The notes under the pieces were generated by a model, which was given only the letters and a program-made list of their open reading frames with translations, searched no databases and was not told the DNA's origin. The position numbers and the translations under genes were made by a program. From positions 118,271 to 182,270 of the forward strand of contig CAZXKO010000038.1 in NCBI GenBank assembly GCA_964641665.1: a DNA stretch of 64,000 bases, written 5' to 3'. The stretch's first letter is position 1; every line of letters begins with the position of its first letter. This document shows, piece by piece, positions 234 through 20,135 of this stretch. The DNA comes from an uncultured Acidobacteriaceae bacterium (lineage in GTDB: Bacteria; Acidobacteriota; Terriglobia; Terriglobales; Acidobacteriaceae).

Positions 234-1052
234 TCAATCGGGCGACGCTAAAATCTGCACGTCGCCGGGGATGACTGGGCCGGAAAACTCAAAGGGATGG
301 CCTTGCAAGTCGGTCAGCTTGTATCCGAATTCCGCGAGGATCGCCTGCACACCTAAGGCCGATTTCTCGGAGTGCAGCTCGCAGCAAATTGTCGTTCTGC
401 GCGCCTTCAGGATTGAGCGAGCCCCCTCGAGCACTCTGGCTTCCTCATCTTCCACATCAATCTTCATAAAATCGGGAGGGGGATTGGTGTGGACAAAATC
501 GTCGAGGGTGATGGTGGTGAGATCTACGGTCGGCCACTTCGACTGGCCATCCGCAATGCGCGACCCGTAGGTATTCTCGTTGACGCTGAAACGGACGGTG
601 CGCACCGCGTCGCTAACCGGGCTGGGAACAATCGTGACGTTTTCAAGATGGTTGGCAGCGGCATGTTTGCGAATTTCCGCGGCCGCTTTTTGAGCCGGCT
701 CAAACGCATACACCATCTTTGCCTTGCGGGCCATCAGCAAAGAAAGGTAACCGATACTGGCGCCCAGGTCGTAGCAGATGGATCCCGGCTTTACGAGCCT
801 GTCGATCGCGAGTTGAGTCTCCAATTCATAGGTTCCGCGGATGTGGGCGTGGCTGACGTGTTCGTCCACGACGAGAGTCATCCCCTGCAATGGGCCTGAC
901 TCGATGGACACGGTGGCGCCTTCGAGCCCCACGAAGAAGGAAAACATCTTCCGAAAAAAATGGTAGACGGATGGATTTTTCTGAACCCATCGTTTCACGA
1001 ACTTGGGAGTCAGTTGGGTGGCAGCAATGATTGGCGCCCGCAGTATGGTCAA
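234..1052 (-). CDS. FkbM-family SAM-dependent methyltransferase
   Basis: 272-aa ORF. SAM-binding CYDLGASIGYLSL, FEP motif and FMKIDVEDEEARVLEGA, typical of FkbM-family methyltransferases. Confidence 0.85.
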   Translation of the reverse strand: MTILRAPIIAATQLTPKFVKRWVQKNPSVYHFFRKMFSFFVGLEGATVSIESGPLQGMTLVVDEHVSHAHIRGTYELETQLAIDRLVKPGSICYDLGASIGYLSLLMARKAKMVYAFEPAQKAAAEIRKHAAANHLENVTIVPSPVSDAVRTVRFSVNENTYGSRIADGQSKWPTVDLTTITLDDFVHTNPPPDFMKIDVEDEEARVLEGARSILKARRTTICCELHSEKSALGVQAILAEFGYKLTDLQGHPFEFSGPVIPGDVQILASPD

Positions 1053-1197
1053 GGTCTGATTTTGTGGGAGCGAGGTGCCCCGTTCCTTTTCGGAAAATTC
1101 TCTAAAGAGGCTGAACTTCTCTTGTAGCGATTGTTAACACAACACCCTATCTGACCCTCCACGGGTTTTCAAGAGCGCCGGAACTGGCAAGTCTTGT

Positions 1198-2250
1198 TCA
1201 CGGCCGTTTGAGCAGTTGCTCGTACAGATCACGCACAGCTTGCAGATTGCTTTCGTCAGCCGCGGAGGGCACGCGGCCTGACCGGGAAGTGGGCGCGTTG
1301 AGTTGCTCGTTGATGGCGCGCAGTAGAGCGGGCATGTTCGATTTCGGGATGAGGCGCAAACCTGGGGGCCGCATGCCGTTGTCGGTCGCGATCACGGCGG
1401 TGCCGACGTGCAGAGCCTCGCGTACAGAGACGGCATCGCCGTCGTAAAGAGTGGTGCGCAGCATCAACTGGGATTGGACAATCGCCTGCAGTGTGGCGGA
1501 GTGCGGGACGTCGCCACAGAGCAAAATGTGCTCCGCGTAGGGCTGTGCATCAATCTGGTTGCGGAGGGTGTGTTCCAGGGACCCCGAACCGATCAGGACG
1601 AGGCCGGCGTTTTGAAAGTTCAATCGGACTTGTCCGAGAACCTGGATTTGGGTTGGGAGGTCATACTCGGGCTCCAGCAGTCCGACGGAGATCAGGACTG
1701 GACTGTGCCGTGCGAAGAACGAGTGCAGCGGCTCGGGCAGGGAGCCGGATGAGCCGTCTTCCGCGAGGAAAGCGTGAGGATAGATCAAGCGCGTGTTGTT
1801 CGCAGAAACACCAAGCTTGTGGAAGAAGTGGAGGATCTCGGGATTCACGGCGATCAGGCCGTCGAACCGGCGCAGAACAAACCCCGCCAGAGATTTTGGT
1901 CCCAGGGACTGCGCTTCGGGAGTTGAGGGATAGCCGCCCGAATGAAAGGTCAGGACCGACTTACTGCCGCGCAGAAGGGTACAGGCCAAGCCCAAGGCAA
2001 GGAGCCGGAAGGTGAGCATGCCACCGAGGTGTAGATGCAGGACATCATATTGCAGGCGTCGCAGGAGTCCAATGAGTTGGGCGGCGTTTTCGGGGTAGTA
2101 GACGTCATCCGCCTCTGGCTTGCGGTGCCGGGTGATGTTGATCACCGCGCAAGAATTTCCGTTCTTGCGCAGGAAGGCGCGGATCGCCACCAGGTTGCTT
2201 TGCACTCCGCCGTGAGGAGGAGGGTAGGGACCAAGCTGGAGCACTCTCAT
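1198..2250 (-). CDS. glycosyltransferase (GT4/GT1-like)
   Basis: 350-aa ORF. N-terminus MRVLQLGPYPPPHGGV is typical of GT-B glycosyltransferases. Its start overlaps the stop of the upstream gene by 4 nt. Confidence 0.8.
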   Translation of the reverse strand: MRVLQLGPYPPPHGGVQSNLVAIRAFLRKNGNSCAVINITRHRKPEADDVYYPENAAQLIGLLRRLQYDVLHLHLGGMLTFRLLALGLACTLLRGSKSVLTFHSGGYPSTPEAQSLGPKSLAGFVLRRFDGLIAVNPEILHFFHKLGVSANNTRLIYPHAFLAEDGSSGSLPEPLHSFFARHSPVLISVGLLEPEYDLPTQIQVLGQVRLNFQNAGLVLIGSGSLEHTLRNQIDAQPYAEHILLCGDVPHSATLQAIVQSQLMLRTTLYDGDAVSVREALHVGTAVIATDNGMRPPGLRLIPKSNMPALLRAINEQLNAPTSRSGRVPSAADESNLQAVRDLYEQLLKRP

Positions 2251-4430
2251 GGGGTGCGGGACGCGAGGAAGTTGTCGAGATCGATGGTGCAGGGCACTCG
2301 CTCGCGGGCGGACTGCAGCATGCGCAGGCAGCCGAGGGTGGAGCGGACGCCGTCGCGGACGGTGATGTCGGGGGGGCGGCCCTGTTGCAGGGCGGCGAAG
2401 AAAGCCCGCATTTGAGCCTCGTAGCCCTTTTCGGCGAACCAGCTGGAACGCTTACGAACCGAGTTCGTGCGGACGGAGGATTGCTTGAAATCCTCTGCAA
2501 AGGCGCCCATGCCGGGAGCAAAGATCTCGACGCGCTCGCCGCCCGAGGTGCGGCTTCCGACGGTGCAGTAGGTGAGACTGGCGATGGAACCGTCGGCAAA
2601 ATGGATGCTGGCGACAAGGTTGTTTTCTCCGATCGGATCCTGCTTGCCGATGGGAAGGGAATAGGCGGAAACCTCGAGGGGCTCCGAGTCCAGCAGCCAG
2701 TAGACGAGATCGATGAAGTGGCAGGCTTCGCCGAGGATCGCACCTCCGAGCGCGGGATCGGCCATCCAGTAGGCACCAGAAATGCTGGGGGAGTTGATCC
2801 GGCAATTCAGCACCGCGGGCCCAGAGCGCTTGGCGAGTTGCTCCTTGAGCGCCAGGTACGAGGGCGCATACCGACGATTGAATCCTACGGTCAGTTGCTT
2901 GCTGGTTTCATGGACGGCACTATCGAGGGCCAAGCAATCCTGCTCGGTGAGGGCCAACGGCTTCTCGACAAAAACATTTTTTCCGGCGCGCAGGGCCGCC
3001 AGTGCCTGGGAGGCGTGCTGCTGGTTCCGGCTGACGATGACGACCGTGTCGACGGAAGTATCCTTGAGAATCTCGTCGTAGTCGGAGGCGCAGTACTCGG
3101 CCCCGAAACGCATGGCATAGCTCTTGCCACGTGAGCCATTCGACGACTGCACGGCGCGCAGGCGGATTCCCGGAGTGTTCTTCAGATTGGGCAGGTGGGT
3201 CCAGCGCGCGAGATTGCCTGCACCGACTATGGCTACGCCGATGCTGGAAGTGGAGCCAGAGGGAGTGGTTACCTCGACTCTGCGCTTCGGTTCGAACGCG
3301 GTGACAGGATCGGGGATGTCGGCCGCAGGATACTTGAGCAGCACTGCCAGGCTGGTGACGGCCGGATCCATGATGGTCACGTACGCTTTGGGTGCATCTT
3401 CGAGCGGAAATTGGTGCGTGATGAGGGGAGCGAGCTGCACGCGGGCCTGGGAGGTGAGCCTCAGGAACTCTTCCATGTTGCGATTCTCGGTCCAGCGCAC
3501 GTAGGGCAGGGGATAGTCTTGACCCTGGCGCTCATAGGAAGCGTCATAACTTCCGGGGCCGTAGGCGCGAGCCATGAGGACCTGGATTTCCTTGAGGTAG
3601 GTTTCATACCAGGGGAAGTTGAGCTGGACCGCGCCCACGTCGACGATGCGGCCGCGGTCGCGGCAGATGTCGACGGCGAGGCGGCAGGGGGCGTCGGACT
3701 TGGCGGCGGCCGCGATAATCACGCAGTCCGCGCCAATGCCATTGGTGAGCACCTTGACTTGTGCGGGGAACTGGTCGCCGCCGGCGATTGCGGCATCGGC
3801 TCCAAGTTGGCGGGCGAGCTCCACGCGATCGGGCCTGAGGTCGGTGGCGATGACGTAGCCGCCGTGCAAGCGGGCGAGCTGAGCAATGAGTTGACCCACT
3901 AGGCCGAGTCCGATGACGGCGATTTTCTCCCCCAGGGAGAAATTGGCGATGCGCACGCCATTCAGGGCGATACTACCCAGGGTAGTGAAGCAGGCGTGTT
4001 CGAAGGGTACGTTATCGGGCACTTTGACGACCAGGTTGCGGCCCACCAGGATGCTTTCGCCGTGCCCGGTGCCTTCGCCGCCGTAGGCAACGCGGTCTCC
4101 GAGTTCCAGGTCGCGGACGGTACTGTGCTTGTCGACGACCACTCCGGCACCTGAATATCCGAGCACGGCGTATTCACTGAACTTGGCCTTTACTTCGGCG
4201 AGGGTCCGCAGCGGACCTTGTGACTTCATCACATTGAGAATCTTGCCGATGTAGGACGGGTTATCGGCAACCGCGCGGACCACGCCCTCCTGGTGGATGC
4301 TGGCGGTTTCAGTGCCGCTGCTGATGAGGGAATAGATGGGGCGGACAAGCACGTGATGGGGAGTCACGACGGGGTCGGGAACCTCATCGACGATGATGTG
4401 TTTCAAGCCCTTGCGCAGGAGTTGTTTCAT
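2247..4430 (-). CDS. bi-domain oxidoreductase (Zn-ADH/MDR-like N-terminal half + Gfo/Idh/MocA C-terminal half)
   Basis: 727-aa ORF. N-terminal half has an MDR fold with Rossmann VIGLGLVGQL. C-terminal half has a second Rossmann IVGAGNLARW and an EKP motif (VFVEKPLA) typical of Gfo/Idh/MocA. Confidence 0.85.
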   Translation of the reverse strand: MKQLLRKGLKHIIVDEVPDPVVTPHHVLVRPIYSLISSGTETASIHQEGVVRAVADNPSYIGKILNVMKSQGPLRTLAEVKAKFSEYAVLGYSGAGVVVDKHSTVRDLELGDRVAYGGEGTGHGESILVGRNLVVKVPDNVPFEHACFTTLGSIALNGVRIANFSLGEKIAVIGLGLVGQLIAQLARLHGGYVIATDLRPDRVELARQLGADAAIAGGDQFPAQVKVLTNGIGADCVIIAAAAKSDAPCRLAVDICRDRGRIVDVGAVQLNFPWYETYLKEIQVLMARAYGPGSYDASYERQGQDYPLPYVRWTENRNMEEFLRLTSQARVQLAPLITHQFPLEDAPKAYVTIMDPAVTSLAVLLKYPAADIPDPVTAFEPKRRVEVTTPSGSTSSIGVAIVGAGNLARWTHLPNLKNTPGIRLRAVQSSNGSRGKSYAMRFGAEYCASDYDEILKDTSVDTVVIVSRNQQHASQALAALRAGKNVFVEKPLALTEQDCLALDSAVHETSKQLTVGFNRRYAPSYLALKEQLAKRSGPAVLNCRINSPSISGAYWMADPALGGAILGEACHFIDLVYWLLDSEPLEVSAYSLPIGKQDPIGENNLVASIHFADGSIASLTYCTVGSRTSGGERVEIFAPGMGAFAEDFKQSSVRTNSVRKRSSWFAEKGYEAQMRAFFAALQQGRPPDITVRDGVRSTLGCLRMLQSARERVPCTIDLDNFLASRTP

Positions 4431-4477: not shown

Positions 4478-6313
4478 TTACTGGACGCCCAGGGTGGCCT
4501 TGTCGACGCTGTTGATGTCCGCGCCCATATCCTTGCCGTCGGTGGCCGCGCGTTTGAACTTGCTGTTAGCGGCGAGGCGGTAGTCGCCGCCGTTGCCGTT
4601 CTTGAAGTTGACAAAGCCCACGTCGTTTACTTTCTTTACGGTGGCGTTCCCCTTGGGCCAGCCGCCATCGCCAATGATCACGTTGTGGTGGATAGCATAG
4701 GTGCGGAAGCAATCATCAAGAACCTCTGAGACGCTTCTGCTATCGGGCAGGGCGGAGCAATTTTTCTGCGGTCCCCCGCCCGTGGTCATGATCGGCTTAT
4801 CTCCAACCGTGAAAATGCTGTTGGTGATGGAGAGACCGAACATGCGAGGCTCGACACGCGGGCCACCCAGGATGAAGAAGGGTCCGGGAGGGAAGGCGGT
4901 GACGTGATCGATCTGGACGTCGCGGAGAACCGGCGTGTTCGAGACTCCTGGGGTCAGGGAATATTGCGCGAAGACACCGTTACCCTTGAAGAGGCCGGGC
5001 TGGATGTCGTCGACCACAACATCGTGAATGCTATAACGCTCGCCAGCCTTCGGGGCCCCACCATTGTCGGAGATACTATTAGCGATCTGAAAGGCGCTGC
5101 CGACGTGGCTGATGCGGCAGTTGCGAATGGTGAGGTCGCTAACATAGCACTCGGGACAAACGTTGGTGCCGGCCGCTCCGGCCTGGTTCTTGGGAGTAAT
5201 CAGGATTCCGAACCCGCTCTGGCTGAACCCGCCCCAGGTGTTTTCCAGGACGTTGCCGTCAAACAGGACGCGGGTTGCATTCTTGAGTTCGAACAGATTC
5301 TTAACGATGAAAGGCCGACCGTTGGTGGCGCCGACAAATTGCGGGTTGCCGGGCATCCAGGTCAAGGGTTTGAACATGTAGTTGTGCCGGATCTCGATGT
5401 CAGAAGGAGCGAGGGCGGCGAAACCGCCGCCGAAAATGATGGTTTCGGCCGCGCCTTCCATGAAATTGTTGTCGATCTTGTACGGACCCATGGGGTTGCT
5501 GCCCAAGCCCCCGGCGATGGCTTGCGCGTCGACGCAGGCGCCAGTGGCAGCAGTGCAATGGAAGTCGGTGAAGGTCGAGTCCACAATCGCAACGTAGGTG
5601 CTGCCGCCGAGGGAGATGCCTCGGTTGGTCTCGTCCTGCGGAACGCCGTGAAACCAAACCCGGTCAAAGATGATGTGATCCATCACACCGTCTTTTTCAG
5701 GCATGGCAAGGTTGTAGACCACGAAGCCCGGCGTGTCGCGTGTCACTTCGAGGCCGATGAGGCGATAGTGGTTGGCGCCGTTGGCGAAGAACAGTGGTCC
5801 GCTGCCACGCGAGGCGAAGACGACCTTCGCCATCATATTTTTGGGAGCGGCACAGTGGAAATCGGGGCGACCGGGAAGCGAGGCCACGCCCGCATAGCAG
5901 GGTGTGAGCCTCGTACCTTCCGGCGGCAAGGCGCTGTCGGGCGCGCTGGTGCGAACGATCACCCAGTGCTGGTCATCGCACTTCTTTGCCGGCAGGGTGA
6001 ATGTGCCGGTGAAGGTGGCACCAGCCTCAAGCGCGATGGTGTCTCCGCAGTTGGCGCTGCTCAGCGCGGCCCTAAATTCGGCAGCTTGTCTTACGGAGAT
6101 AGTGTGCCCGGGCGCAGGCGAGTCGGCTAAGGAACTCTTCACATAAACGCGGGGCAACTCGGCGGGTCCATCGAAGCCGGGGCGGGAAGGAGCAGGGCCG
6201 ACCCGACCGGCGCCGGGTTTTCTTGGCGACGACATCCCTATGGCCGTTAGAGCAACTGTAATCAATACGATAGAGGTTCCCAGGTGCGACCCCGAAGGTG
6301 CGTGTGCGGCCAT
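4478..6313 (-). CDS. membrane-anchored right-handed beta-helix protein (short paralog, P1)
   Basis: The ORF is open to 6502, but ATG 6313 (MAAHAPSGSHLGTSIVLITVALTAIG) gives an N-terminal TM anchor and removes the overlap with the upstream gene. About 540 aa align with the C-terminal part of 7494-10151. Repetitive beta-helix-like sequence; C-terminal DGKDMGAD. Confidence 0.75.
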   Translation of the reverse strand: MAAHAPSGSHLGTSIVLITVALTAIGMSSPRKPGAGRVGPAPSRPGFDGPAELPRVYVKSSLADSPAPGHTISVRQAAEFRAALSSANCGDTIALEAGATFTGTFTLPAKKCDDQHWVIVRTSAPDSALPPEGTRLTPCYAGVASLPGRPDFHCAAPKNMMAKVVFASRGSGPLFFANGANHYRLIGLEVTRDTPGFVVYNLAMPEKDGVMDHIIFDRVWFHGVPQDETNRGISLGGSTYVAIVDSTFTDFHCTAATGACVDAQAIAGGLGSNPMGPYKIDNNFMEGAAETIIFGGGFAALAPSDIEIRHNYMFKPLTWMPGNPQFVGATNGRPFIVKNLFELKNATRVLFDGNVLENTWGGFSQSGFGILITPKNQAGAAGTNVCPECYVSDLTIRNCRISHVGSAFQIANSISDNGGAPKAGERYSIHDVVVDDIQPGLFKGNGVFAQYSLTPGVSNTPVLRDVQIDHVTAFPPGPFFILGGPRVEPRMFGLSITNSIFTVGDKPIMTTGGGPQKNCSALPDSRSVSEVLDDCFRTYAIHHNVIIGDGGWPKGNATVKKVNDVGFVNFKNGNGGDYRLAANSKFKRAATDGKDMGADINSVDKATLGVQ

Positions 6314-6488
6314 AACTCGTCCGACCCGATGATACCACGCTGATTTGAGGGCGGTTTTTGTGGGAGGCACAGGAGTTGCTGAAGTCGGTGCCTGATTTTT
6401 CCTCAAGTCCTCGCCTTGACTTGCGTGCCGGCGCTGGGGGCAGTTCGCGGCGCAAATTGCCTCTGCGACATCATGCGGGGGTACATTT

Positions 6489-7274
6489 TCAGGGCTGAAC
6501 ATCCGGTGTTCGACTCTGCAGTTTCATTACGACGCAGGTTGCATAGCGTTCCAGGAAAGGCCAGTTCTGGAGGGCCCAATTACTTATACGCCACGGTACC
6601 CGGGTCTGCGAACGGAAGGTTCGACGAACCAGAGGCACGATGGGGAGACGGAAAAGACGAACCCCCTGTGCGACGAAGCCCTGCAAAAGTTCATCGAGTT
6701 CTGGACGAGTCAGAGGGTGCTCGAAGTCGGAGATATCCTCATGCGCGGGCAACAAACTGCGAAGACGAGCGTAGCCCGTTGAAAATCGAATGGGTTCATT
6801 CAGGATGACGGTTCCGTGCGGGGCGAGAATCCTGCGCATCTCCTCGCACACGATGGGGATCTGCAGATGATGGACGAGTGCGATGCAAAAGATGACATCA
6901 ACGGACTTGTCCGGAAGCCCTGTTTCATAGGCGGACCTGACTGCCAGGGACGCCTCCAGGCCTGCGTCGGCCAGACGCTTCTGAGCTAGCGCGATCAGGT
7001 CGGGCGAGATGTCTAAGCCGACCGTGCGGGCTCCTCGCCGGACGAGCGGCACCAGGTTTTCGCCAGAGCCACAGCCAAAATCGAGAACGGTCTTGCCGGC
7101 GACGTCGCCGAGAAGATGGAAGGCGTACTCGAGTGGATAGATGGTGTCTGCGGGTGGGGCCAGGTAGCGCTCGACGTCGGAGATGGGATTCACGACGGTC
7201 TTGCGGGCTTCAGCGGCGCTGCGTTCAATTTCCGACTGTTCCTGCTCAGCGATCTGTACCTTCGAATTGGACAT
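6489..7274 (-). CDS. class I SAM-dependent methyltransferase
   Basis: SAM motif VLDFGCGSGENL. The ORF is open to 7328; ATG 7274 (MSNSKVQ) is the preferred start. Confidence 0.85.
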   Translation of the reverse strand: MSNSKVQIAEQEQSEIERSAAEARKTVVNPISDVERYLAPPADTIYPLEYAFHLLGDVAGKTVLDFGCGSGENLVPLVRRGARTVGLDISPDLIALAQKRLADAGLEASLAVRSAYETGLPDKSVDVIFCIALVHHLQIPIVCEEMRRILAPHGTVILNEPIRFSTGYARLRSLLPAHEDISDFEHPLTRPELDELLQGFVAQGVRLFRLPIVPLVRRTFRSQTRVPWRISNWALQNWPFLERYATCVVMKLQSRTPDVQP

Positions 7275-7493
7275 TCGGTCTCTCCCCGGTTCTCGTCCCG
7301 GGCGAAGAAACTCCCTCGTTAAACTCACACTGCCAGCTGGATTTTACATTGGCCTGTTTTCCTTGGCAAAGTGCAGGACTGGAGCCAGATGCCGCTCCGT
7401 GTTGGGGCAGAGGGACGCGGCTGAGGGGAAGTAGGAAACGGCCTTCGCCGGAGGTGAGAGAACCCGCGAGGTCGGAGCCGAGCAACCAATCAT

Positions 7494-10151
7494 CTATTCG
7501 ATGCCCGCTATGGCAGCGGTGACAGCCGCGACATCCGCACCCAGGTCTTTCCCATCGGTCCCCGCACTAATGAAAGGGCTGGCAGGAAGGAGCTGATAGT
7601 TTCCGTCGATCGGATTGTCGCTGGTGAACAGTATGTTCGCGGAGGTCGCCGGGAACGAGTTGCCGGTGGGCCAAGTGGAAGGAGGGGTGCTCTTGGGAAG
7701 GCCGATGATTGCGTTGTTGCTGAAATGGTAGTTGGAAAAACAAGAGTTCAGAACCGCGCTGGGTGACGACAAACCGTAAACGCAGTCCTGCTTTCCACCA
7801 TCCGCCGTCAGAAAGGGATAAACACCTGCATTGGCGATATTGTTCGTGAAGGTGAAGTCGCTCATCTTGGGGTTTGCCCCGAGGTTGTCGCCCACGACCA
7901 GGAGCGTTCTGAGCGAGAGCGCGGTCACGTGATCGATCTTCACGTGCTGCAGAATGGGCGCGTCACCGCTAGCGGAAACCTGCGCCAGAACACCGGCTCC
8001 ACTATAGGTTGTGCCGTCAAGACCTTCGAAGATCACATCGTGAATGCTATAGCGCTGGCCGTCGAGGGGAGCGCCCTTGTTGTCGGACATGGCATTGGCG
8101 ATCTGCATTCCGGAGGCAGTGTTGCGCACGAGGTTGTAGCGAATGGTGACATCCGTGACCAGGCAGGCAGGACACACGTTGCCGGTGCCGCTAGCCTGGT
8201 TCTTGGGGGTGAGCAGGATGGCAAAGCCGACCTGGGAAAAGCCTCCCCAGGTATTTTCCAAGATGTTGCCCTCAAGGAGGACGCGCTGCGCGTTTTTGAG
8301 TTCAAATAGGTTCTTGACGATGAAAGGATGGCCGTCGCGGCCGCCGACAAAGTTGGGGCTGCCCTTCATCCAGTTCGCCGGTTTGAACATGTGATTGTGA
8401 CGGACTTCGATGTCGGTGGGGGCTACAGTGGCGGCCCCGCCTCCGAAGATGATGGTTTCCGCCGCGCCTTCCATGAAATTGTTGTCGATCTTGTACGGAC
8501 CCATGGGGTTGCTGCCCAAGCCTCCGGCGATGGCTTGCGCGTCGCCACAGGCCCCGCTCGCCGCGACGCAATGGAAATCCGACATGTAGGAATCGACGAT
8601 CGCCGCATAAGTCGTACCCGACAGCATGATGCCGCGCGTCGTCTCGTCCTGCGCGGTTCCATGAATCCAGGAGCGGTCGAAGACGATGTGGTCGGCGGTG
8701 CCATCCTTGTCGTTCAGCACGAGGTTGTAGACGACGGCGCGGGGCGTGTTACGCGTGATTTCGACCCCCAGGAAACGATAGTGGTTGGCGCCGTTGGCAA
8801 AAACGATCGGCCCGCTGCCTTCGCCCGAGAAGACGATCGCTGACAGAACGTTGCGTGGGGAAGGGCACGAATAGGGAGGTCGCCCGGGAAGGGAAGCTAC
8901 TCCCGCGTAGCAAGGCGTGAGCCGGTTTCCTTCGGGAGGCAATGCGCTGTCGGGAGCACTGGTGCGGACGATGATCCAGTGGTTGTCATCGCACTTCTTT
9001 GCCGGCAGGGTGAATGTGCCGGTAAAGGTTGCGCCAGCCTTGAGCGTAATGGTGTCGCCACACTTGGCTGAGTTGAGTGTGGGCTGCAAGCCGGCGCTGG
9101 CGGTCACGGCGTGAGTGACGCCGGGAGCCGGAGTATCGGCCAATGAACTCTTGACGTAGACACGAGGCAGTTCCGCGGAGCCGTCGAAGTCACTGATGTT
9201 AGATGGGGAGACGTTGATCGAGAACTTATGCGAGACGCTTTGGCTGGAAGCGTCACTGACGGAGGCCGTAAAAGACGATATGCCGGCTTGGAGGGCGAGT
9301 CCCTGGATCGTGCCATCGGCAGCGAGTTCGATCCCGGAGGGCAAGGACCCGGAAGCCACTTTCCACTGAAAGGGCGCTTTCCCGCCGGACGCGTGAAGAG
9401 CGACGTTGTATGGAACGCCCTCGGTCGCTTCGGGAAGGCTGGTGCTGCTTACGGCCAGGGTTGAAGAAGACTGGGTGGAAGGGCTGACGGTGATGGTTGC
9501 GGCACCCTGCTTGCTGGGATCGGCTTTACTGGTCGCGGTCAACTGGATCGTGGCGGATGTGTTGGCAATGGGGGCGATGAAAAGGCCCATCGAAGTAATG
9601 GTGCCGGCGCTCACGGACCAAGTGACCGCAGGATTGCTGGCATTCGACACGACGGCCGAAAACTGATGGGCCGCGCCCGGGGCGAGGTTCACGCTAGTGG
9701 GTGAAACTGCCACCTCGACCGAGGGAGTGACGACGGGAGCCTTCACCGTGATCGAAAACCTCTGCGTGCCCGCAGCATTGCCAGCCTGGTCAGCGACGAA
9801 GATCGTGAACTTGTAGGCGCCTGCGGTCTTCGGGGTGCCGGAGATCGATCCAGAGTGGGCGCTCATGGTGAGTCCCGGGGGAAGCTGGCCCATTTTAGTG
9901 GTGAAGTTGTAGGGAGCGGTTCCTCCGCTAACGGCGATCGCGGCGCTGTAGGTGTGGCCAAGGGTGGCTACCGGCAGACTCGCCGAAATGGCGATGGGTT
10001 GCGTCGCGCCGGCCGAGTTCAGCAGGGCACAGCCTGTGTTCGCAATGGAAAAGGCCAGGATCAACCCAAGGCAAAGATAAAAGCTGCAAGGGAACTGAGT
10101 GGTGGGGAAGCTGGGCCGTACTCTGGGTTGGGGGCAAACCAGGGTAAACAT
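7494..10151 (-). CDS. secreted/lipoprotein-like Ig-repeat + right-handed beta-helix protein (long paralog, P2)
   Basis: The ORF is open to 10175. The signal ends in a lipobox-like IANTGC. Three Ig-like modules (SGGTAPYNF..LPPGL..GTP; Big_2-like VSPTSVNLAPG; SGGKAPFQW..LPSGI) precede a beta-helix domain paralogous to 4478-6313. Confidence 0.8.
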   Translation of the reverse strand: MFTLVCPQPRVRPSFPTTQFPCSFYLCLGLILAFSIANTGCALLNSAGATQPIAISASLPVATLGHTYSAAIAVSGGTAPYNFTTKMGQLPPGLTMSAHSGSISGTPKTAGAYKFTIFVADQAGNAAGTQRFSITVKAPVVTPSVEVAVSPTSVNLAPGAAHQFSAVVSNASNPAVTWSVSAGTITSMGLFIAPIANTSATIQLTATSKADPSKQGAATITVSPSTQSSSTLAVSSTSLPEATEGVPYNVALHASGGKAPFQWKVASGSLPSGIELAADGTIQGLALQAGISSFTASVSDASSQSVSHKFSINVSPSNISDFDGSAELPRVYVKSSLADTPAPGVTHAVTASAGLQPTLNSAKCGDTITLKAGATFTGTFTLPAKKCDDNHWIIVRTSAPDSALPPEGNRLTPCYAGVASLPGRPPYSCPSPRNVLSAIVFSGEGSGPIVFANGANHYRFLGVEITRNTPRAVVYNLVLNDKDGTADHIVFDRSWIHGTAQDETTRGIMLSGTTYAAIVDSYMSDFHCVAASGACGDAQAIAGGLGSNPMGPYKIDNNFMEGAAETIIFGGGAATVAPTDIEVRHNHMFKPANWMKGSPNFVGGRDGHPFIVKNLFELKNAQRVLLEGNILENTWGGFSQVGFAILLTPKNQASGTGNVCPACLVTDVTIRYNLVRNTASGMQIANAMSDNKGAPLDGQRYSIHDVIFEGLDGTTYSGAGVLAQVSASGDAPILQHVKIDHVTALSLRTLLVVGDNLGANPKMSDFTFTNNIANAGVYPFLTADGGKQDCVYGLSSPSAVLNSCFSNYHFSNNAIIGLPKSTPPSTWPTGNSFPATSANILFTSDNPIDGNYQLLPASPFISAGTDGKDLGADVAAVTAAIAGIE

Positions 10152-10385
10152 CACACCGTCCTCGAACAGGATCAATCAGGACTCGGTGTTTCGAATCCTA
10201 ATTACAAGACTGTAAACAGTAACGACTTGCGTACATAGATAACTGTAGGGCAATGACCCGTCGAGACACGGAAGTACATTTTTGTGGTTTTTGTCGACTG
10301 GAAGGTAACGACCGAAAAAGGGGCTCGCTCCGAAAACGGCGCTCCGCACGGGGTTTCAGGCGCGTCTGAGAGGGGAAGGGGTCCT

Positions 10386-11033
10386 TTAGCGGCGTTTTCT
10401 CGCGGGAGCTGCCGCCCTGGTTCTGCCCGCGATTTCGCGCGCGTTCTCGATGGTGAAATGCACTTTCTGCAGGGCATCGGGAGCGCTGGCCCCGTTCCGG
10501 GAGCGCTGGATGCGCAGCAGGGCCCGGTCGACCACGCGAGCGAGTTCGGAGCTATAGTCCGGCGTCCGGTCCTGCCGCAAGCGCCGCTTGGCCTTGTCGG
10601 CCGTGAACCAGGTGGGATTGCGATCCGATTCCTGGGGCGGTCCCAGCCACAACACCTCACACAGATGAGCGTTGACGGCGATCTCTGGAGTTGCCGCGTC
10701 TGCGGGGTTACCACGCTTACGCCGCACGTAGCGGGTGAACGAGGCCTCTTCCATCCGGCCATGAACTCCGGCTTCTTCGAAGGCTTCGAGGGCGGCGGCC
10801 TGGGCGTGAGTCAGGCCCGGTTCGGCGCTGCCTTTGGGAAACGTCCAGCGCCCGCCACGCGTCTGCACCAGCAGAAATTCGATGCTGCCTCCGCGAACCC
10901 GGTAGCACACCGCGGCGACCTGCTCGCAGCCGCGCATCCGGCGCAGCTGTGAGGGCGCAATAAACTTGGTGGACGGCTGATAGCTTCGGGGACGGGACCA
11001 GCCGGTGATCAGACGCCATTCTCCAGCGCTCAT
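10386..11033 (-). CDS. NUDIX hydrolase
   Basis: Nudix box GSAEPGLTHAQAAALEAFEEAGV. Alternative start at 10937 (MRGCEQVAAV). Confidence 0.85.
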   Translation of the reverse strand: MSAGEWRLITGWSRPRSYQPSTKFIAPSQLRRMRGCEQVAAVCYRVRGGSIEFLLVQTRGGRWTFPKGSAEPGLTHAQAAALEAFEEAGVHGRMEEASFTRYVRRKRGNPADAATPEIAVNAHLCEVLWLGPPQESDRNPTWFTADKAKRRLRQDRTPDYSSELARVVDRALLRIQRSRNGASAPDALQKVHFTIENAREIAGRTRAAAPARKRR

Positions 11034-11237
11034 AACACTAGAGTGCGGGATACGTCGCGGTTCTGACTAGAGCACAGCTTGGTTCGTGTGTGACTTTCAG
11101 GGGATGATCTCGGGATTAGTGCGCTGCGACCCGAAGCCTACGGGCCACCGAACTAGCTGCGGGAATCCGCGTACATACTTGCGTGTCAATACCGTGAGGA
11201 GACAGTATTTTCAGTGGCCGCAGCCCGGCCGCGAGGG

Positions 11238-11594
11238 ATGGCTCGCTTGGAAAACTGGTATTGTCTGCGCTGCAATCAGGAACTGGAGAGCAAACACAAA
11301 TCGGTGGCGGTCTACATGTTCGCGCAGACTGTGGGCATCAAGCCACGGCAAAAGTCCACCGCCCAGCGAATTTGTTTCTGCCCGCAATGTTCTGTCTCGC
11401 TGGCCATGGGGCCTCCGCCGGAAGGCGCTTTGAACATCGCTGCTTGGAACATGATCCGCGACCTGGTCGGCGCCGACCCGGCTCTGAACCAGGCGGCATG
11501 GGACAGCCTACGGGGAATTGTAGGTTCGTTGCCCAGTGGCGATGCCGACACCGGTCCTCGTCCCGCCGTGGGCGGCGCGTACTTCGAGTTCTGA
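11238..11594 (+). CDS. hypothetical protein with CxxC..CxxC zinc-ribbon-like motif
   Basis: MARLENWYCLRCNQ....CFCPQCS. The ORF is open from 11214. I recognise no family. Confidence 0.4.
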   Translation: MARLENWYCLRCNQELESKHKSVAVYMFAQTVGIKPRQKSTAQRICFCPQCSVSLAMGPPPEGALNIAAWNMIRDLVGADPALNQAAWDSLRGIVGSLPSGDADTGPRPAVGGAYFEF

Positions 11595-11675
11595 TGGAGC
11601 TGTTTGAGAGCCGTCTGACTCGCTAGGACGTTGAAATTTTTCAAGGGCCTGCGGGAAGCGGGCTTCTGGTGCATG

Positions 11676-12926
11676 CTAGGTCCTCGCCGTTGTCGTCAGC
11701 GCGCTGGGAGCAGCTTGTCCGCCGGAGGCTCCGTCGATCACCTTCTGAAGAACCTCCACGAAACGCTCCGTAATGACAGACCAATCGTATTGCCGGGCCG
11801 TTGCCGCTGCCGCTGCTTCGTAACGGCGCCGGAGCTCCGCATCCTGTAACAACTGGATGATCGCAGCGGCGAAAGCCGCAGGTGTGTCTTCGAGCAGGAT
11901 GTCACGACCGTGCTGCACGTCGAGTCCCTCGGCGCCGACGGTAGTGGAAACGGTAGCCTTGCCCATCGCCATGCCTTCATAGATCTTGATGCGGGTACCC
12001 CCGCCGATCCTTAACGGGACCACGACGACCGCGGCTTCGCGCAGGTGCTCGACGATCGACGGCACCGTACCCGTCACCTCCACCGAAGCGGAAGCGAGTT
12101 TCTTCACGCGTGGGTCAGGATCGCGGCCGATGATGCGGAAGCGCGCGGCGGGGATCTGGGCCAGCACCAGGGGCCAGATTTCGTGGCAGAAGAACTCGAC
12201 GCCGTCGATGTTCGGCCTCCAATCCATCGACCCGGTGAAGACCACCAGGGCGCTGGACGGGCGGGCGTTGGGATCGTACCGGTACTTGCTGAGATCGACC
12301 CCGGTGGGAACTACGCTGATGCGGGAGGGATTGACCATGGCGCTCATCGCCTGGCGGTCCGTTTCCGAAACGGCAATTACGTGATGGAAGCGGCGGACCT
12401 GCTCGTGTTCGAAGCGCCGCATCTTGGCGTATTCGACTTTCGCCACGGACCGGTCGAGCCACTTCTCTTCGAATTCCGCCCTGCGCTGCCAGAGAACGCT
12501 CTCCACGTTGTGCTGGAACAGAATGGTAGGGGTGGCCAGGCGATCGGGGAAGTTCAGTGTGCTGGAGAGAAAATCACAGACGGCGACATCGAAGCGCCGC
12601 TGCGGCATCCAGCCGCGCAAGAGTTCTTGGACCTGAGGCGCCGCGAACTGACTGACGGCGTACGGAGCATGCAGAGGCAGACGCCGCAAATAGTCGACAT
12701 AGCGCGCCAGGGGTGACGAAGGTCGCTTCGAGGTGGGAACAGAAACCGTACCGGGCAGATGACCTAGAACTTCGCGCTCGTAGGCCTCATCGCGCTCGCC
12801 GCCGTAGTACGAGAGGTACGTCAGTTCCTGCGTCGCGGTGAGATGGCGCAGGATGTTGTAAGTGCGCAGCTTGCCGCCCGTGTCGAGCGGAAGCAGCTTG
12901 CCGGGCTTGACCCAGAGAATCTTCAC
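11676..12926 (-). CDS. glycosyltransferase family 4
   Basis: 416-aa ORF with GT-B architecture. N-terminus MKILWVKPGKLLPLDTGGKLRTYNILRHL resembles EPS-locus sugar transferases. Confidence 0.85.
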   Translation of the reverse strand: MKILWVKPGKLLPLDTGGKLRTYNILRHLTATQELTYLSYYGGERDEAYEREVLGHLPGTVSVPTSKRPSSPLARYVDYLRRLPLHAPYAVSQFAAPQVQELLRGWMPQRRFDVAVCDFLSSTLNFPDRLATPTILFQHNVESVLWQRRAEFEEKWLDRSVAKVEYAKMRRFEHEQVRRFHHVIAVSETDRQAMSAMVNPSRISVVPTGVDLSKYRYDPNARPSSALVVFTGSMDWRPNIDGVEFFCHEIWPLVLAQIPAARFRIIGRDPDPRVKKLASASVEVTGTVPSIVEHLREAAVVVVPLRIGGGTRIKIYEGMAMGKATVSTTVGAEGLDVQHGRDILLEDTPAAFAAAIIQLLQDAELRRRYEAAAAATARQYDWSVITERFVEVLQKVIDGASGGQAAPSALTTTART

Positions 12927-12932
12927 AGGCGC

Positions 12933-14258
12933 CTACCAGCACATGCCTTCGTAGGGCCCGGTCGTCTCGATGCGGCGGGCTTTCTCAAGGTTGACGAGGT
13001 CGATCACGACTTGGCCGGGCCGGATCTGGCGGCTCAAAGTGGCCCTGTCGATGCCCCTGGTGCCGATCACGACGACCTCCGCTTGCGCCAGCGCAGTCTC
13101 GAGATCCGGGCAGAGCAGTGAGCCGATGTGAGGGATGACCTCCTCGATGTACTGGCGGTTCGAACCGATGAGCTGGCCGAGAGAAACGTTGTCGTCCCAA
13201 ATCTTGAGATCGCGGCCCTCGCCCAGCAGGCGCTTGGCGAGTTGCACCTGGGGACTTTCACGCAAATCGTCGGTGGCGGCTTTGAAGCTCAGCCCGAGCA
13301 GCGCGATTTTCTTCATGCCGGTGCCGAGTACCATTTCGACGGCCCGCTCCAGGTGCTCCTCGTTGCTCGGCATGATCGATTGGAACAGCGGCAGGTTCAA
13401 GTCCAGCTCTTTGGCGCGGTAGTTCAGGGCACGCACATCTTTCGGAAGGCACGAACCGCCGAACGCAAATCCCGGCTTCAGGTAGGTGGGTGAGATATTG
13501 AGCTTGGTGTCGGCAGTGAAGATTTCGACCACCGATTCGGCGTCGACTCCCATCTCTTTCGCCAACGTGCCGATTTCATTGGCGAATGACACTTTCACGG
13601 CGTGCCATGCGTTACAGACATACTTCGTCATCTCCGCGGAGCGGAACGAAGTCTCGAAGATTCGTCCCGGCGCCCACTTGTAGATCGCGCGCAGCAAGCC
13701 GCTGTGGTAGGGGTCGCCGGCGCCGATGATCGTCATCGCGGGCTCTAGGAAGTCGGACACCGCGGTGCCTTCGCGCATGAATTCGGGATTCACACAAACA
13801 CCGAAGTCCTTACCCATTTTCTTCCCGCTGGCTTTTTCCAGCGCGGGGATGACAATTGTCTCGGCCGTACCCGGCAGAACTGTGCTGCGCAGGACGACCA
13901 AATGAAACGCGTCTTTTTTCTTCAGCACCTTGCCAATGGCGTGGCAGACGGGTTCGATGCTCCCCAGGTCGAGTTTGCCGTTGCGCAGGCTGGGCGTGCC
14001 CACGCACAGGAAAGAGATTTCGGAATTCATGACAGCGGTTTCGGAATCGGAAGTGGCGTCCAACCGCTGGGCTTTGTGCGCATCGGAAATGAGGGTGCCC
14101 ACCCGGGGTTCGACGATCGGGCTGCGCCCCGCCGCCATCGCTTCTACCTTAGTGGGACTAAGGTCGACGCCGATAACGTTGTGTCCCATGTGCGCAAGGC
14201 AGGCCGCTGTCACGGTGCCGACATATCCAAGACCGAAGACGCTAATCGAACGGCTCAT
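12933..14258 (-). CDS. nucleotide-sugar 6-dehydrogenase (UDP-glucose/GDP-mannose dehydrogenase family, AlgD-like N-terminus)
   Basis: Rossmann FGLGYVGTVTAACLA; catalytic-Cys motif GGSCLPKD; 441 aa. Confidence 0.9.
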   Translation of the reverse strand: MSRSISVFGLGYVGTVTAACLAHMGHNVIGVDLSPTKVEAMAAGRSPIVEPRVGTLISDAHKAQRLDATSDSETAVMNSEISFLCVGTPSLRNGKLDLGSIEPVCHAIGKVLKKKDAFHLVVLRSTVLPGTAETIVIPALEKASGKKMGKDFGVCVNPEFMREGTAVSDFLEPAMTIIGAGDPYHSGLLRAIYKWAPGRIFETSFRSAEMTKYVCNAWHAVKVSFANEIGTLAKEMGVDAESVVEIFTADTKLNISPTYLKPGFAFGGSCLPKDVRALNYRAKELDLNLPLFQSIMPSNEEHLERAVEMVLGTGMKKIALLGLSFKAATDDLRESPQVQLAKRLLGEGRDLKIWDDNVSLGQLIGSNRQYIEEVIPHIGSLLCPDLETALAQAEVVVIGTRGIDRATLSRQIRPGQVVIDLVNLEKARRIETTGPYEGMCW

Positions 14259-14565
14259 GCGAGTTGGTCGTCCCTTTCAGCAAACGGTAAATGACAATGG
14301 ATTTCAGTTGAATCTCTGAGTCACCCGAGCCTTCACGCCGAAGTGTCCGCGCCCCCCGGCGGGTGTTCGCTTCCCAGGCCTAACATTCGGTGCGTGAATC
14401 ACATACGAGGGCTCTCGCCGACGCCAGTCAGACCCGGGTGATTCCATTCTCTGTGGCCGCAAACATCCGCTACTATTTAACACGCAGGGGGTAAGCTTTG
14501 GAAAGGACATTGCTCCACTCTTTAGTAACTAAGTCGAAGCTTTTCAATAGGATGACATCGGTACA

Positions 14566-15780
14566 ATGGATGGGATGAGGGACGCGCCAGCGGCGGATCT
14601 GGGAACGGCCGAAGAGCTTCGCATGCCTGCGTCCCTCCGCGTGCGCCGCAAAGTTTTCTATCTGCTCGATTCTCTCGAAATTGGCGGAACGGAGACGCAG
14701 GCGGTCGAGTTGGCGTTGCGCCTGCCGGCTCACGAGTACGAGATCACGTTGGGATGTTTGCGACTGCAGGGCCCGCTCCTTGCCCGGTTCCGTGGATCCG
14801 GGGTGAGGGTCCAGGAATTTCATCCCAGGGGCGGGATCGATTCGCCGGCGGGCCTCTATCAACTTTTGCGGCTGGCGGTGTTTCTGCGGCGGCAGAGATT
14901 CGACGTGGTGCACACCCACGATCTTTGGTCGAACGTCATGGGCGTTCCGGCGGCGCGGCTGGCGGGCGTACCGGCCATTATTTCGAGCCGGCGGGATCTG
15001 GCGCACTTCGACTGGTACGAGGGGAAACGGCGGGTGTGGCTGCGGCGGATCCAGAACCTCTCGAACGTGGTGCTCGCGAACGCGACGCCGATCCGCGACG
15101 CCCTGGTTGCGGAAGATGGTTTCGCGCCCGAGAAACTGCGGGTCATTCACAACGGTGTGGACACCGAGAAATTCCAGCGCGGGAAGCGGGATCGGGAGCG
15201 GCTGGTTCCGGGCGCCGGGGACGGGAAGCTGGTAGTGCTGGTCGGAAACATGCACAGCGACGTGAAGGGGCACCCATGGCTGATTGCGGCAGCGCCCGCC
15301 GTGGTGCGGGAGTTCCCCAAGACGCGATTTGTTTTTGCGGGCGATGGAGAATCACGAGGGACGTTCCAGCAACAGGTGGCCGGGTTGGGCTTACAGCAGA
15401 GCTTTGTGTTTCTGGGACGGAGAGACGACATTCCCGACGTACTGGCCAGTTGCGACATCGCACTACTTCCGTCGAAGGCAGAAGGGCTGCCGAATGCAGT
15501 GCTGGAATATATGGCGGCAGGGTTGCCGACGATCGCGAGCCGGGTGGGGGGCAACGCAGAGCTGGTGCAGGATGGGGTGACGGGATTGCTGGTTCCGGCA
15601 CAGGATTCGGAAGCGCTGTCGAATGCTCTACTGTGGTTATTGCGGGATTCGGAGTTGTCGCAAAGGATCGCGTCCGAAGGGCGACGGCTGGCGACCGAGG
15701 GTTTCAGCTTCGAACGACTGGTCCGGGAAACGGACGAACTCTACACGGAACTTCTGGAGCAGCGCGAAGGCAGACGATAG
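14566..15780 (+). CDS. glycosyltransferase family 4
   Basis: 404-aa ORF. VFYLLDSLEIGGTETQ N-terminus and C-terminal EGLPNAVLEYMAAGLP (GT4 E-x7-E region). Confidence 0.85.
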   Translation: MDGMRDAPAADLGTAEELRMPASLRVRRKVFYLLDSLEIGGTETQAVELALRLPAHEYEITLGCLRLQGPLLARFRGSGVRVQEFHPRGGIDSPAGLYQLLRLAVFLRRQRFDVVHTHDLWSNVMGVPAARLAGVPAIISSRRDLAHFDWYEGKRRVWLRRIQNLSNVVLANATPIRDALVAEDGFAPEKLRVIHNGVDTEKFQRGKRDRERLVPGAGDGKLVVLVGNMHSDVKGHPWLIAAAPAVVREFPKTRFVFAGDGESRGTFQQQVAGLGLQQSFVFLGRRDDIPDVLASCDIALLPSKAEGLPNAVLEYMAAGLPTIASRVGGNAELVQDGVTGLLVPAQDSEALSNALLWLLRDSELSQRIASEGRRLATEGFSFERLVRETDELYTELLEQREGRR

Positions 15781-15783
15781 GCG

Positions 15784-18153: not shown

Positions 18154-18155
18154 TC

Positions 18156-20096: not shown

Positions 20097-20135
20097 CGTT
20101 TCCGCTTTTGAACCCATGAGAGTAGGTGGCTGAAA

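Follow-up and report, generated by a model that had tools for sequence, protein, structure and literature searches.

Two paralogous beta-helix proteins of an acidobacterial exosortase-type exopolysaccharide locus as putative polymer-cleaving envelope enzymes

A 64,000-nucleotide (nt) stretch of DNA from an uncultured Acidobacteriaceae bacterium (assembly GCA_964641665.1, contig CAZXKO010000038.1, positions 118,271-182,270; hereafter, the window) encodes two related proteins, P1 and P2, which share a domain predicted to fold as a right-handed beta-helix. The pair sits inside an exosortase-type Wzx/Wzy exopolysaccharide (EPS) locus of the XrtA/PEP-CTERM-like kind, and its domain belongs to a very large family without a home in Pfam, NCBIfam, or the sequences of the Protein Data Bank (PDB). 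With a probability of about 0.5, we read P1 and P2 as envelope enzymes that cleave the EPS of their own locus.

Fold and family of the beta-helix domain

The preliminary description of this DNA, made from its letters alone, had aligned the two proteins end to end and judged by eye that more than half of their residues were identical. BLASTP confirms this: residues 110-674 of P1 and 330-893 of P2, numbered in their longest open reading frames (ORFs), are identical at 337 of 572 positions (59%, E=0), from FDGxAELPRVYVKSSLAD through DGKD(M/L)GAD, after which both proteins continue for ~15 polar residues. They are the sole copies of the family in the 5.5-Mb genome.

A single-sequence AlphaFold model of P1 reached a predicted local distance difference test score (pLDDT) of 34.9 and was replaced by an AlphaFold2 model of the domain built on a 103-sequence alignment (A2) that spans the Terriglobales and Blastocatellia branches of the family. 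This model (pLDDT 93.8, predicted template modeling score 0.94) places ~40 short strands in register in a right-handed beta-helix, and Foldseek assigns a probability of 1.00 to its likeness to many solved beta-helices. The fold class, as proposed beforehand, can be taken as established at the level of a model. Foldseek searches against the PDB gave 58 matches at E<=1e-3, and all 50 of those listed are carbohydrate-active beta-helices. The top match is the glycoside hydrolase (GH) 136 LnbX, with E 6e-8 and template modeling (TM) scores of 0.51/0.50; others include the polysaccharide lyase (PL) 31 alginate lyase, PL9 Pel9A, GH28, and the HK620 tailspike. The PL6 matches (alginate lyase and chondroitinase B) superpose with target TM scores of 0.59-0.64 and a root-mean-square deviation (rmsd) of 5.6-5.9 Å, and RbmB is also among the matches (E 1.2e-4, target TM 0.56). 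A viral fold library yielded tailspikes and depolymerases, none closer than the PDB neighbors.

These searches bear directly on the idea that P1 and P2 play no carbohydrate role and are instead surface proteins of the adhesin or autotransporter-passenger type, an idea to which a surface beta-helix on an immunoglobulin (Ig)-like stalk lends some architectural resemblance. The preliminary description had named a match solely to a passenger or adhesin as a result that would count against its own reading; none appears among the top 50 PDB matches, and Pfam finds no translocator-barrel domain. Because both proteins end at the helix cap with no translocator domain, and the short form has no anchor, we find the adhesin interpretation scarcely credible.

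At the level of sequence, no characterized family had been recognized, and searches of Pfam, NCBIfam, and PDB sequences agree. NCBIfam has no match for P1 and one weak, sub-threshold repeat-domain match for P2, and a PDB sequence search gave nothing significant with either P1 alone or a 17-sequence profile. A 103-sequence profile, however, detected the N-terminal cap motif of PL6 (E 3.6e-5) and PL31 (E 5.7e-5) lyases, together with the C-terminal motif of PL6; for GH136 (5gqc/7v6i), there was no PDB sequence match even with this profile at E<=10. Membership of a known family of the carbohydrate-active enzyme database CAZy is not established.

The family is large by any measure. More than 4,600 proteins were matched at E<=1e-3 among 8,000 candidates scored in a 90%-clustered database, and a hidden Markov model scan of 1.84 billion representatives gave 7,983 clusters (50% identity) at E<=1e-3 and 2,669 at E<=1e-30. 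Every name given among the 120 matches listed is "hypothetical protein," and the named sources are Terriglobales metagenome-assembled genomes (MAGs). A second branch, at 38-40% identity, occurs in Blastocatellia, where nearly all members are likewise "hypothetical" and some carry a TIGR03437 C-terminal domain. The family was found in 16 of 201 sampled genomes of the phylum, and our search of the literature, which covered Acidobacteria, exosortase, EPS, and beta-helix, turned up no publication about it.

A short and a long form in exopolysaccharide loci

The pair had been described as part of a biosynthetic locus, and Pfam and NCBIfam assignments support that setting both within the window and upstream of it. 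Beside the pair lies an EPS core with, in order, a NUDIX gene, an stp1-like GT4 glycosyltransferase (GT4_b), and a UDP-glucose dehydrogenase (UGDH), followed by a divergent part comprising an stp2-like GT4, a heparinase II/III-like protein, an AsnB-type amidotransferase, and a polysaccharide deacetylase. In NCBIfam, the stp1 and stp2 matches fall below the equivalog cut-offs, and the best match of AsnB is the XrtA/PEP-CTERM amidotransferase (eps_aminotran_1), also below cut-off. The locus continues in the 20 kb upstream of the window (L092, G000:C38:98271-118270; frame 5007-5972(-) and neighbors) with a TPR protein, the exosortase EpsH (PF09721, E 6.5e-80, 19 kb upstream on the same contig), Wza, a 484-amino-acid (aa) protein with no Pfam match, Wzz/GNVR, AAA_22 and AAA_31 ATPases, a priming transferase, a GT2, Wzy_C, and a second AsnB.

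This association is not peculiar to one genome. When one genome per species was scanned, at least 550 loci with a relative came to light, and 78 of them were kept with 10-kb flanks; most of these belong to MAGs of Terriglobales, Acidobacteriaceae, and Ca. Sulfotelmatobacter, and a few are labeled Eremiobacterota or Solibacter. When the window proteins were used as tblastn queries, EPS genes were found within 10 kb of the beta-helix gene in 78 of 78 loci, including AsnB (59), the stp1-like GT4 (54), UGDH (44), the heparinase-like protein (33), and the stp2-like GT4 (33). Two members of the Blastocatellia branch, at 38-40% identity, lie in an operon of the form GT4-GT4-AsnB-GT4-deacetylase-beta-helix, with 6 nt separating them from the deacetylase gene, so the tie to EPS biosynthesis spans classes. 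In these two operons (L095 11802-18520 and L096 14438-21009), the beta-helix gene is followed by luciferase-like, AMP/acyl-ligase, formyltransferase, acyl carrier protein, SxtJ-like, and carbamoyltransferase genes, a set which may indicate that the polymer of that branch is acylated or carbamoylated. Among the sampled genomes, an exosortase is present in 11 of the 16 that possess the family versus 28 of the 185 that do not (odds ratio 12; Fisher p 9e-6, a generous value since the genomes are related), and in at least four genomes no more than 30 kb separates family and exosortase.

Two beta-helix genes occur within 10 kb of each other in 56 of the 78 loci, and such loci almost always combine a short form of ~600 aa with an Ig-extended long form of about 790-1090 aa. 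The short/long label requires 6 changes on a tree of 133 domains versus ~43 when shuffled, and the nearest relatives of P1 and P2 are both found in one other genome (L014). Judged from the tree, the gene was duplicated long ago, and the two forms have persisted since. The tree and the orthologous pairs in those 56 loci argue against a recent local duplication. The methyltransferase gene lying between P1 and P2 had been correctly identified (Methyltransf_11/25), but its inclusion in the unit did not hold up: a homologue is present in only 5 of the 78 loci, at varying position and strand, which argues against a functional tie to the pair. Full pairs with 51-55% identity, in the same kind of locus, were also seen in MAGs labeled as Ca. 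Elarobacter and Ca. Aquilonibacter of the Eremiobacterota (L060, L072) and as Ca. Solibacter (L077); either transfer of the whole EPS locus or errors of binning or labeling could account for those bearing the label of another phylum.

The two forms differ in their predicted route to the envelope. P1 begins with a 17-aa hydrophobic stretch that has a possible A-I-G/M cleavage site (slash, point of cleavage) and no basic n-region. Its short orthologues (~600 aa) carry canonical Sec signals, for example, ...LALAASAWA/RG and ...PTAAQ/SSS, after which come a short linker and the invariant FDGPAELPRV. Because these orthologues have canonical signals with AxA-type sites, the P1 N-terminus is more likely to be a cleavable Sec signal than the transmembrane anchor first suggested. 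P2, by contrast with the short form, is best read as a lipoprotein. Its lipobox-like sequence, ...AFSIANTG-C49, had been noted before, and although Asn at -3 is atypical, a homologous Cys is found in the long orthologues (TTGC, SSCG, or TGCA at this position), where it is preceded by [AST][GAS]; 43 of 55 long forms have such a motif versus 15 of 73 short forms. The three Ig-like modules ascribed to P2 were likewise recovered with Pfam, which matches He_PIG in two stretches of the N-terminal ~320 residues (E 1.9e-21) and gives weak, sub-threshold Big_2 and PKD matches to the module between them, at residues 155-213. In family members, the domain is often preceded by long He_PIG, Big_2, ASH/Cep192-type, or fn3 arrays, and relatives carry Big_2, He_PIG, fn3, or ASH-type arrays at the position of the P2 stalk. 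Members of the Terriglobales branch have 10-11 conserved cysteines, which fit an oxidizing, extracytoplasmic compartment. Neither P1 nor P2 has a PEP-CTERM signal, there being no PEP within the last 40 aa.

The domain itself appears to be a mosaic. Identity between P1 and P2 is 77% over domain residues 1-110, 72% over 111-330, and 41% over 331-565. In the closest relative by flanking genes (L070; UGDH 95%, GT4_b 92%), collinearity with the window at 86% nt identity (L070 14256-21670) runs from 15608 down to 8200 and breaks inside P2 (8198-8200), where the conserved N-terminal 330 aa give way to the variable C-terminal third; to the left of the break, the 3' end of P2, the methyltransferase, P1, the oxidoreductase, the GT4, and the FkbM gene are all replaced in L070. 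At the protein level, P2 and the long form of L070 are 60-95% identical to residue ~660 and 28-45% identical thereafter. Across loci, identity in the N-terminal 330 aa follows that of UGDH (Spearman 0.47 for short and 0.68 for long forms), whereas that in the C-terminal 235 aa shows no such relation (0.05 and -0.01). The C-terminal third of the short form has a median identity to P1 of 62% in the 14 loci with the GT4_a cassette found downstream of P1, versus 44% in the other 59 (Mann-Whitney p 3e-8), while the N-terminal part is 65% identical in both groups of loci alike. The order short beta-helix gene, fused alcohol dehydrogenase (ADH)-GFO gene, and GT4_a recurs in L014, L015, L017, L020, L024, and L032. 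In our reading, the C-terminal third is paired with that variable region of the locus which determines structure; since this third tracks the GT4_a cassette, the partner of the protein would be, by this indirect argument, the polymer of its own locus.

Two islands of high nt identity between the paralogues were also noticed (5436-5531 versus 8449-8544, and 5972-6010 versus 8985-9023), corresponding to P1-domain residues ~46-75 and ~211-240. Their nt identity is 0.84-0.93, and identical amino acids use the identical codon in 70-89% of cases versus ~50% elsewhere, pointing to gene conversion between P1 and P2, or else to very strong constraint.

Conserved residues and proposed function

Conservation was assessed on an alignment of 236 family members (A2 plus the 150 best representatives), with identities down to ~38%. 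Residue numbers are those of the P1 domain; adding 109 gives the 674-aa frame. The polar residues conserved at >=95% are R138, D171, H176, N265, K269, N293, E296, K298, N308, Q319, and N498, and those conserved at 90-95% are R89, E143, S200, K233, N237, E240, E244, D259, E261, K292, R302, and H424. Most of the highly conserved polar residues fall on consecutive coils between residues 135 and 320. D259/E261/R263 and E296/K298 alternate on the predicted strands 258-263 and 295-297, so the members of each set should face one way, and the conserved residues would cluster in space. P1 and P2 each keep all 40 of the 40 family positions conserved at >=90%; for this reason neither looks dead, and both copies are probably active.

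Such a grouping of acids with Lys/Arg would resemble the sites of Ca2+-assisted lyases (PL1, PL6, PL9, and RbmB), though two carboxylates would also suit a hydrolase. As candidates only, N237/E240/E244, K269, K298, and R302 may correspond to a PL6-like Ca2+ site and Lys/Arg pair.

The same residues bear on a non-catalytic role, in which a soluble and a tethered beta-helix "lectin" would bind the EPS and organize the polymer or PEP-CTERM proteins. A review cited in PMC12993940 is given there as a source for beta-helices acting also as glycan binders, the Ig stalk with its lipid anchor resembles a display device, and the variable C-terminal third could be a region of binding specificity. A scaffold would not, however, be expected to hold twelve polar residues at >=95% across so diverse an alignment, concentrated in eight central coils, nor to pair acids with bases as in D259/E261/R263 and E296/K298, a pattern typical of catalytic sites; moreover, all 50 listed structural neighbors are enzymes. 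We consider a pure binder improbable.

For catalysis, substrate, type of chemistry, final location, and the division of labor between P1 and P2, we infer the following arrangement. Both proteins would act outside the cytoplasm on the polymer of their own locus and cleave its chains, with beta-elimination at a uronic acid favored over hydrolysis; lyase chemistry is somewhat favored because of the UGDH in the locus, the pattern of acids with Lys/Arg, and the cap motifs in common with PL6 and PL31. P1 would be released to the periplasm or medium by way of its Sec signal, and P2 would be lipid-anchored, its three Ig-like modules holding the domain off the membrane. The N-terminal two thirds of the domain (cap and central coils), with their invariant acidic and basic residues, are the presumed catalytic groove, and the C-terminal third, swapped or diverging with the glycosyltransferase cassette, would fit the enzyme to the local polymer structure.

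The least unlikely of the alternatives retains an extracytoplasmic enzyme but changes its reaction: P1 and P2 would modify the polymer after export, as a uronate C5-epimerase (AlgG/AlgE-like) or an esterase like those of carbohydrate esterase family 8 (CE8), rather than depolymerize it. Epimerases and lyases of alginate have a beta-helix fold and the first chemical step in common, the epimerase AlgE4 is among the fold matches, UGDH implies a uronic acid, and the genes are conserved within biosynthetic operons, as is algG. Yet AlgE4 ranks only 45th in Foldseek with TM scores of 0.31/0.44, poorer than GH136 or PL6, CE8 is absent from the top 50 fold matches, and the DPH[DE] epimerase motif occurs in neither P1 nor P2. 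The locus also offers another epimerase-type candidate in its cytoplasmic heparinase II/III-like protein. The gene for that protein (15784-18153(+)) is packed tightly between those of the GT4 and AsnB, and whether it acts as a lyase or in an epimerase-like manner bears on the task left for the beta-helix pair.

Several observations weigh against P1 and P2 as enzymes that cleave the EPS of their locus. The fold matches are generic (~10% identity, TM ~0.5), so the type of chemistry cannot be deduced from them. P1 scores 16.6 bits (E 0.006) against the Pfam family PF13229 Beta_helix, below its cut-off of 25.9, and P2 has no match to it, while some distant homologues have a precomputed one. The PL6 family PF14592 matches neither P1 nor P2 at E<=0.1 and nothing in the genome at E<=1e-10. 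Eight of the 11 exosortase-positive genomes of the window's taxonomic family are devoid of the beta-helix family, and 5 of the 16 genomes with the beta-helix family are devoid of an exosortase; given how many exosortase-positive genomes do without it, the family is accessory rather than obligate. The statistics across genomes treat related genomes as independent and thus overstate their independence. Finally, one homologue at 40% identity (L006 1-1209(+)) stands beside a frame (1486-3165(-)) that by eye looks like a glycosidase of the GH95 type; the short flanks of this homologue show no EPS gene, a context unlike all others examined.

This last locus also speaks for a view of the proteins as glycanases for foreign polysaccharides, either food or the matrix of competitors, that lie in an EPS locus by linkage only. 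Acidobacteria are rich in secreted glycanases, and the varied Ig, fn3, and cohesin add-ons of the family recall degradative enzymes. Mere linkage is difficult to reconcile with a biosynthetic setting in all 78 close loci and in the two distant operons, or with a C-terminal third that co-varies with the glycosyltransferase cassette of its own locus, and no transporter or sugar-catabolic genes adjoin the pair. We therefore hold foreign substrates to be quite improbable.

Going beyond cleavage of the local EPS, we tentatively suggest that the domain may define a new carbohydrate-active family (lyase or hydrolase) dedicated to acidobacterial exosortase-type EPS, organized as a two-station enzyme pair with a swappable specificity cassette. 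One station would be the periplasmic or released enzyme and the other the surface lipoprotein on its Ig stalk, and the C-terminal cassette would travel with the structure-determining glycosyltransferases, much like the receptor-binding modules of phage depolymerases.

Few groups of bacteria are as abundant in soil as the Acidobacteria, whose slime influences how soil aggregates and retains water; to our knowledge, almost nothing is known of how this slime is built or remodeled. A very large unnamed family now emerges as a regular component of acidobacterial EPS loci and gains a predicted fold, candidate catalytic residues, a two-paralogue architecture, and a testable site for substrate specificity. 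Should the proteins be enzymes, they would constitute a new CAZy-type family and provide tools to cut acidobacterial polysaccharides, possibly sulfated and containing uronamide, for structural work.

Annotation of the window and comparison with known systems

The longest P1 frame adds 63 hydrophilic residues and overlaps the methyltransferase gene, while the ATG at 6313 is preceded by a Shine-Dalgarno-like GGACGAG; for P2, a similar GAGGA lies 8 nt upstream of the ATG at 10151, and both starts agree with the N-termini of orthologues. The public call for P1 (585 aa, P0004) begins at the next Met (6233-6235, Met90 of the 674-aa frame) and loses the signal region. Because it removes the hydrophobic signal, and orthologues favor the start at 6313, this call is probably too short. 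The features discussed here are collected in Table 1.

Table 1. Coordinates of the beta-helix pair, its sub-regions, and neighboring genes in the window
Feature	Position	Strand	Comment
P1 ORF, short paralogue	4478-6502	-	674 aa, longest frame
P1 gene from ATG 6313	4478..6313	-	611 aa: N-terminal Sec-type signal, short linker, beta-helix domain
P1 hydrophobic N-terminus, MAAHAPSGSHLGTSIVLITVALTAIG/MS	6227..6313	-	Signal peptide, possibly signal anchor; by sequence reading
P1 beta-helix domain, modeled unit	4481..6175	-	565 aa
P1 conserved central coils	5216..5788	-	Domain residues ~130-320, candidate active-site residues
P1 central-coil candidate active-site residues, part 1			R138, E143, D171, H176, K233, N237, E240, E244, D259, E261
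P1 central-coil candidate active-site residues, part 2			N265, K269, K292, N293, E296, K298, R302, N308, Q319
Variable C-terminal third, P1 beta-helix domain	4481..5185	-	41% identical to P2
P2 ORF, long paralogue	7494-10175	-	893 aa, longest frame
P2 gene from ATG 10151	7494..10151	-	885 aa: lipoprotein signal, three Ig-like modules, beta-helix domain
P2 signal peptide ending in lipobox-like I-A-N-T-G-C	10029..10151	-	Putative; Cys codon 10029-10031
P2 Ig-like stalk	9210..9998	-	He_PIG 60-144; Big_2/PKD-like about 155-232; He_PIG about 240-322
P2 beta-helix domain	7497..9188	-	Residues 330-893 of the 893-aa ORF (564 aa)
Variable C-terminal third, P2 beta-helix domain	7497..8198	-	L070 synteny break, protein identity drop
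SAM-dependent methyltransferase between paralogues	6489..7328	-	Class I, Methyltransf_11/25, E 2e-20 (Pfam)
Downstream cassette, co-directional, variable part of locus	234..4430	-	Pfam
Fused Zn-ADH/GFO-IDH-MocA oxidoreductase	2247-4430	-	Pfam
GT4 glycosyltransferase (GT4_a cassette)	1198-2250	-	Pfam
FkbM methyltransferase	234-1052	-	Pfam
Conserved EPS core beside pair	10386..21200	.	Pfam, NCBIfam

Further genes of the window include a module for making 3'-phosphoadenosine-5'-phosphosulfate, a GT-C-like protein, Wzx, a GT2, and a pyruvyl transferase; beyond ~32 kb, the window holds efflux pumps and pentose-phosphate genes. Two frames upstream of the window (L092 17046-17870(-) and 18093-19646(-)), conserved in 60 and 35 of the 78 loci, were set aside as antisense shadows of the second AsnB.

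Among known proteins, the nearest analogue of P1 and P2 may be RbmB of Vibrio cholerae, a periplasmic beta-helix lyase encoded in the matrix gene cluster; it acts by means of a Lys base and Ca2+, and its polymer substrate contains an amide-modified uronic acid (PMC12993940; PMC11637428). Like the pair described here, RbmB (PDB 9ozl/9ozd) is a secreted or periplasmic beta-helix protein encoded among the genes of its own matrix polysaccharide, and its amide-linked uronic acid substrate has a counterpart in the UGDH and the two AsnB-type amidotransferases of the present locus. It differs in its sequence (~10% identity, no profile match), in being a single 360-aa protein with no lipoprotein or Ig-bearing paralogue, in a K227/Ca2+ site that could not be aligned to the family, and in belonging to the vps locus, which is not of the exosortase type.

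The PL6 enzymes (chondroitinase B; Pedsa0632, AlyGC, and BcAlyPL6) give the best core superposition among the matches. The likeness extends to the cap motif L..A...A.pGD.I.L..G.y.G together with the C-terminal "g.y.L...S......kDlG," both within the profile match given above, and to conserved acids with Lys/Arg, such as a Ca2+-assisted lyase would need. Besides the lack of a PF14592 match, the P1/P2 domain is ~150 aa longer than a single-domain PL6. Within the phylum, a search of 151 genomes for PL6 sequences yielded one split gene. GH136 LnbX (PDB 5gqc, 7v6i, and 7v6m), although first in Foldseek and of similar overall length, has 12% identity and an rmsd >10 Å, so that the match is one of fold. 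Gut bacteria use the GH136 enzymes, which depend on a partner chaperone gene, to hydrolyze milk and mucin glycans; no such partner gene or context is found beside P1 and P2.

Many EPS systems employ dedicated processing enzymes, among them AlgL and AlgG for alginate, PslG, PelA, BcsZ, PgaB, and ExoK/ExsH. AlgG is also a beta-helix protein, as is WcaM of Escherichia coli, whose role in the colanic acid cluster is unknown. All of these resemble P1 and P2 in that an EPS locus encodes its own extracytoplasmic polymer-processing protein, but NCBIfam shows no sequence relationship, and we know of none that forms a soluble and lipoprotein paralogue pair with a swappable C-terminal third.

Exosortase EPS loci of the XrtA/PEP-CTERM type are known from the families of Haft 2006 and include zooglan- and methanolan-type clusters. 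The present locus has their EpsH, Wza, Wzz/kinase, priming transferase, Wzy_C, stp1- and stp2-like GT4s, eps_aminotran_1-like AsnB, and deacetylase. It differs in its beta-helix proteins, a component found neither in NCBIfam nor in the published description used for comparison (epsSMASH preprint, 10.64898/2025.12.21.693542). An EPS locus with its own beta-helix processing protein is, then, a known theme. What appears to be new, as judged from comparison of the loci, is a very large family outside Pfam, NCBIfam, and the PDB sequences, a conserved pair of soluble and lipoprotein paralogues in acidobacterial exosortase-type loci, and a C-terminal third that seems to move with the glycosyltransferase cassette.

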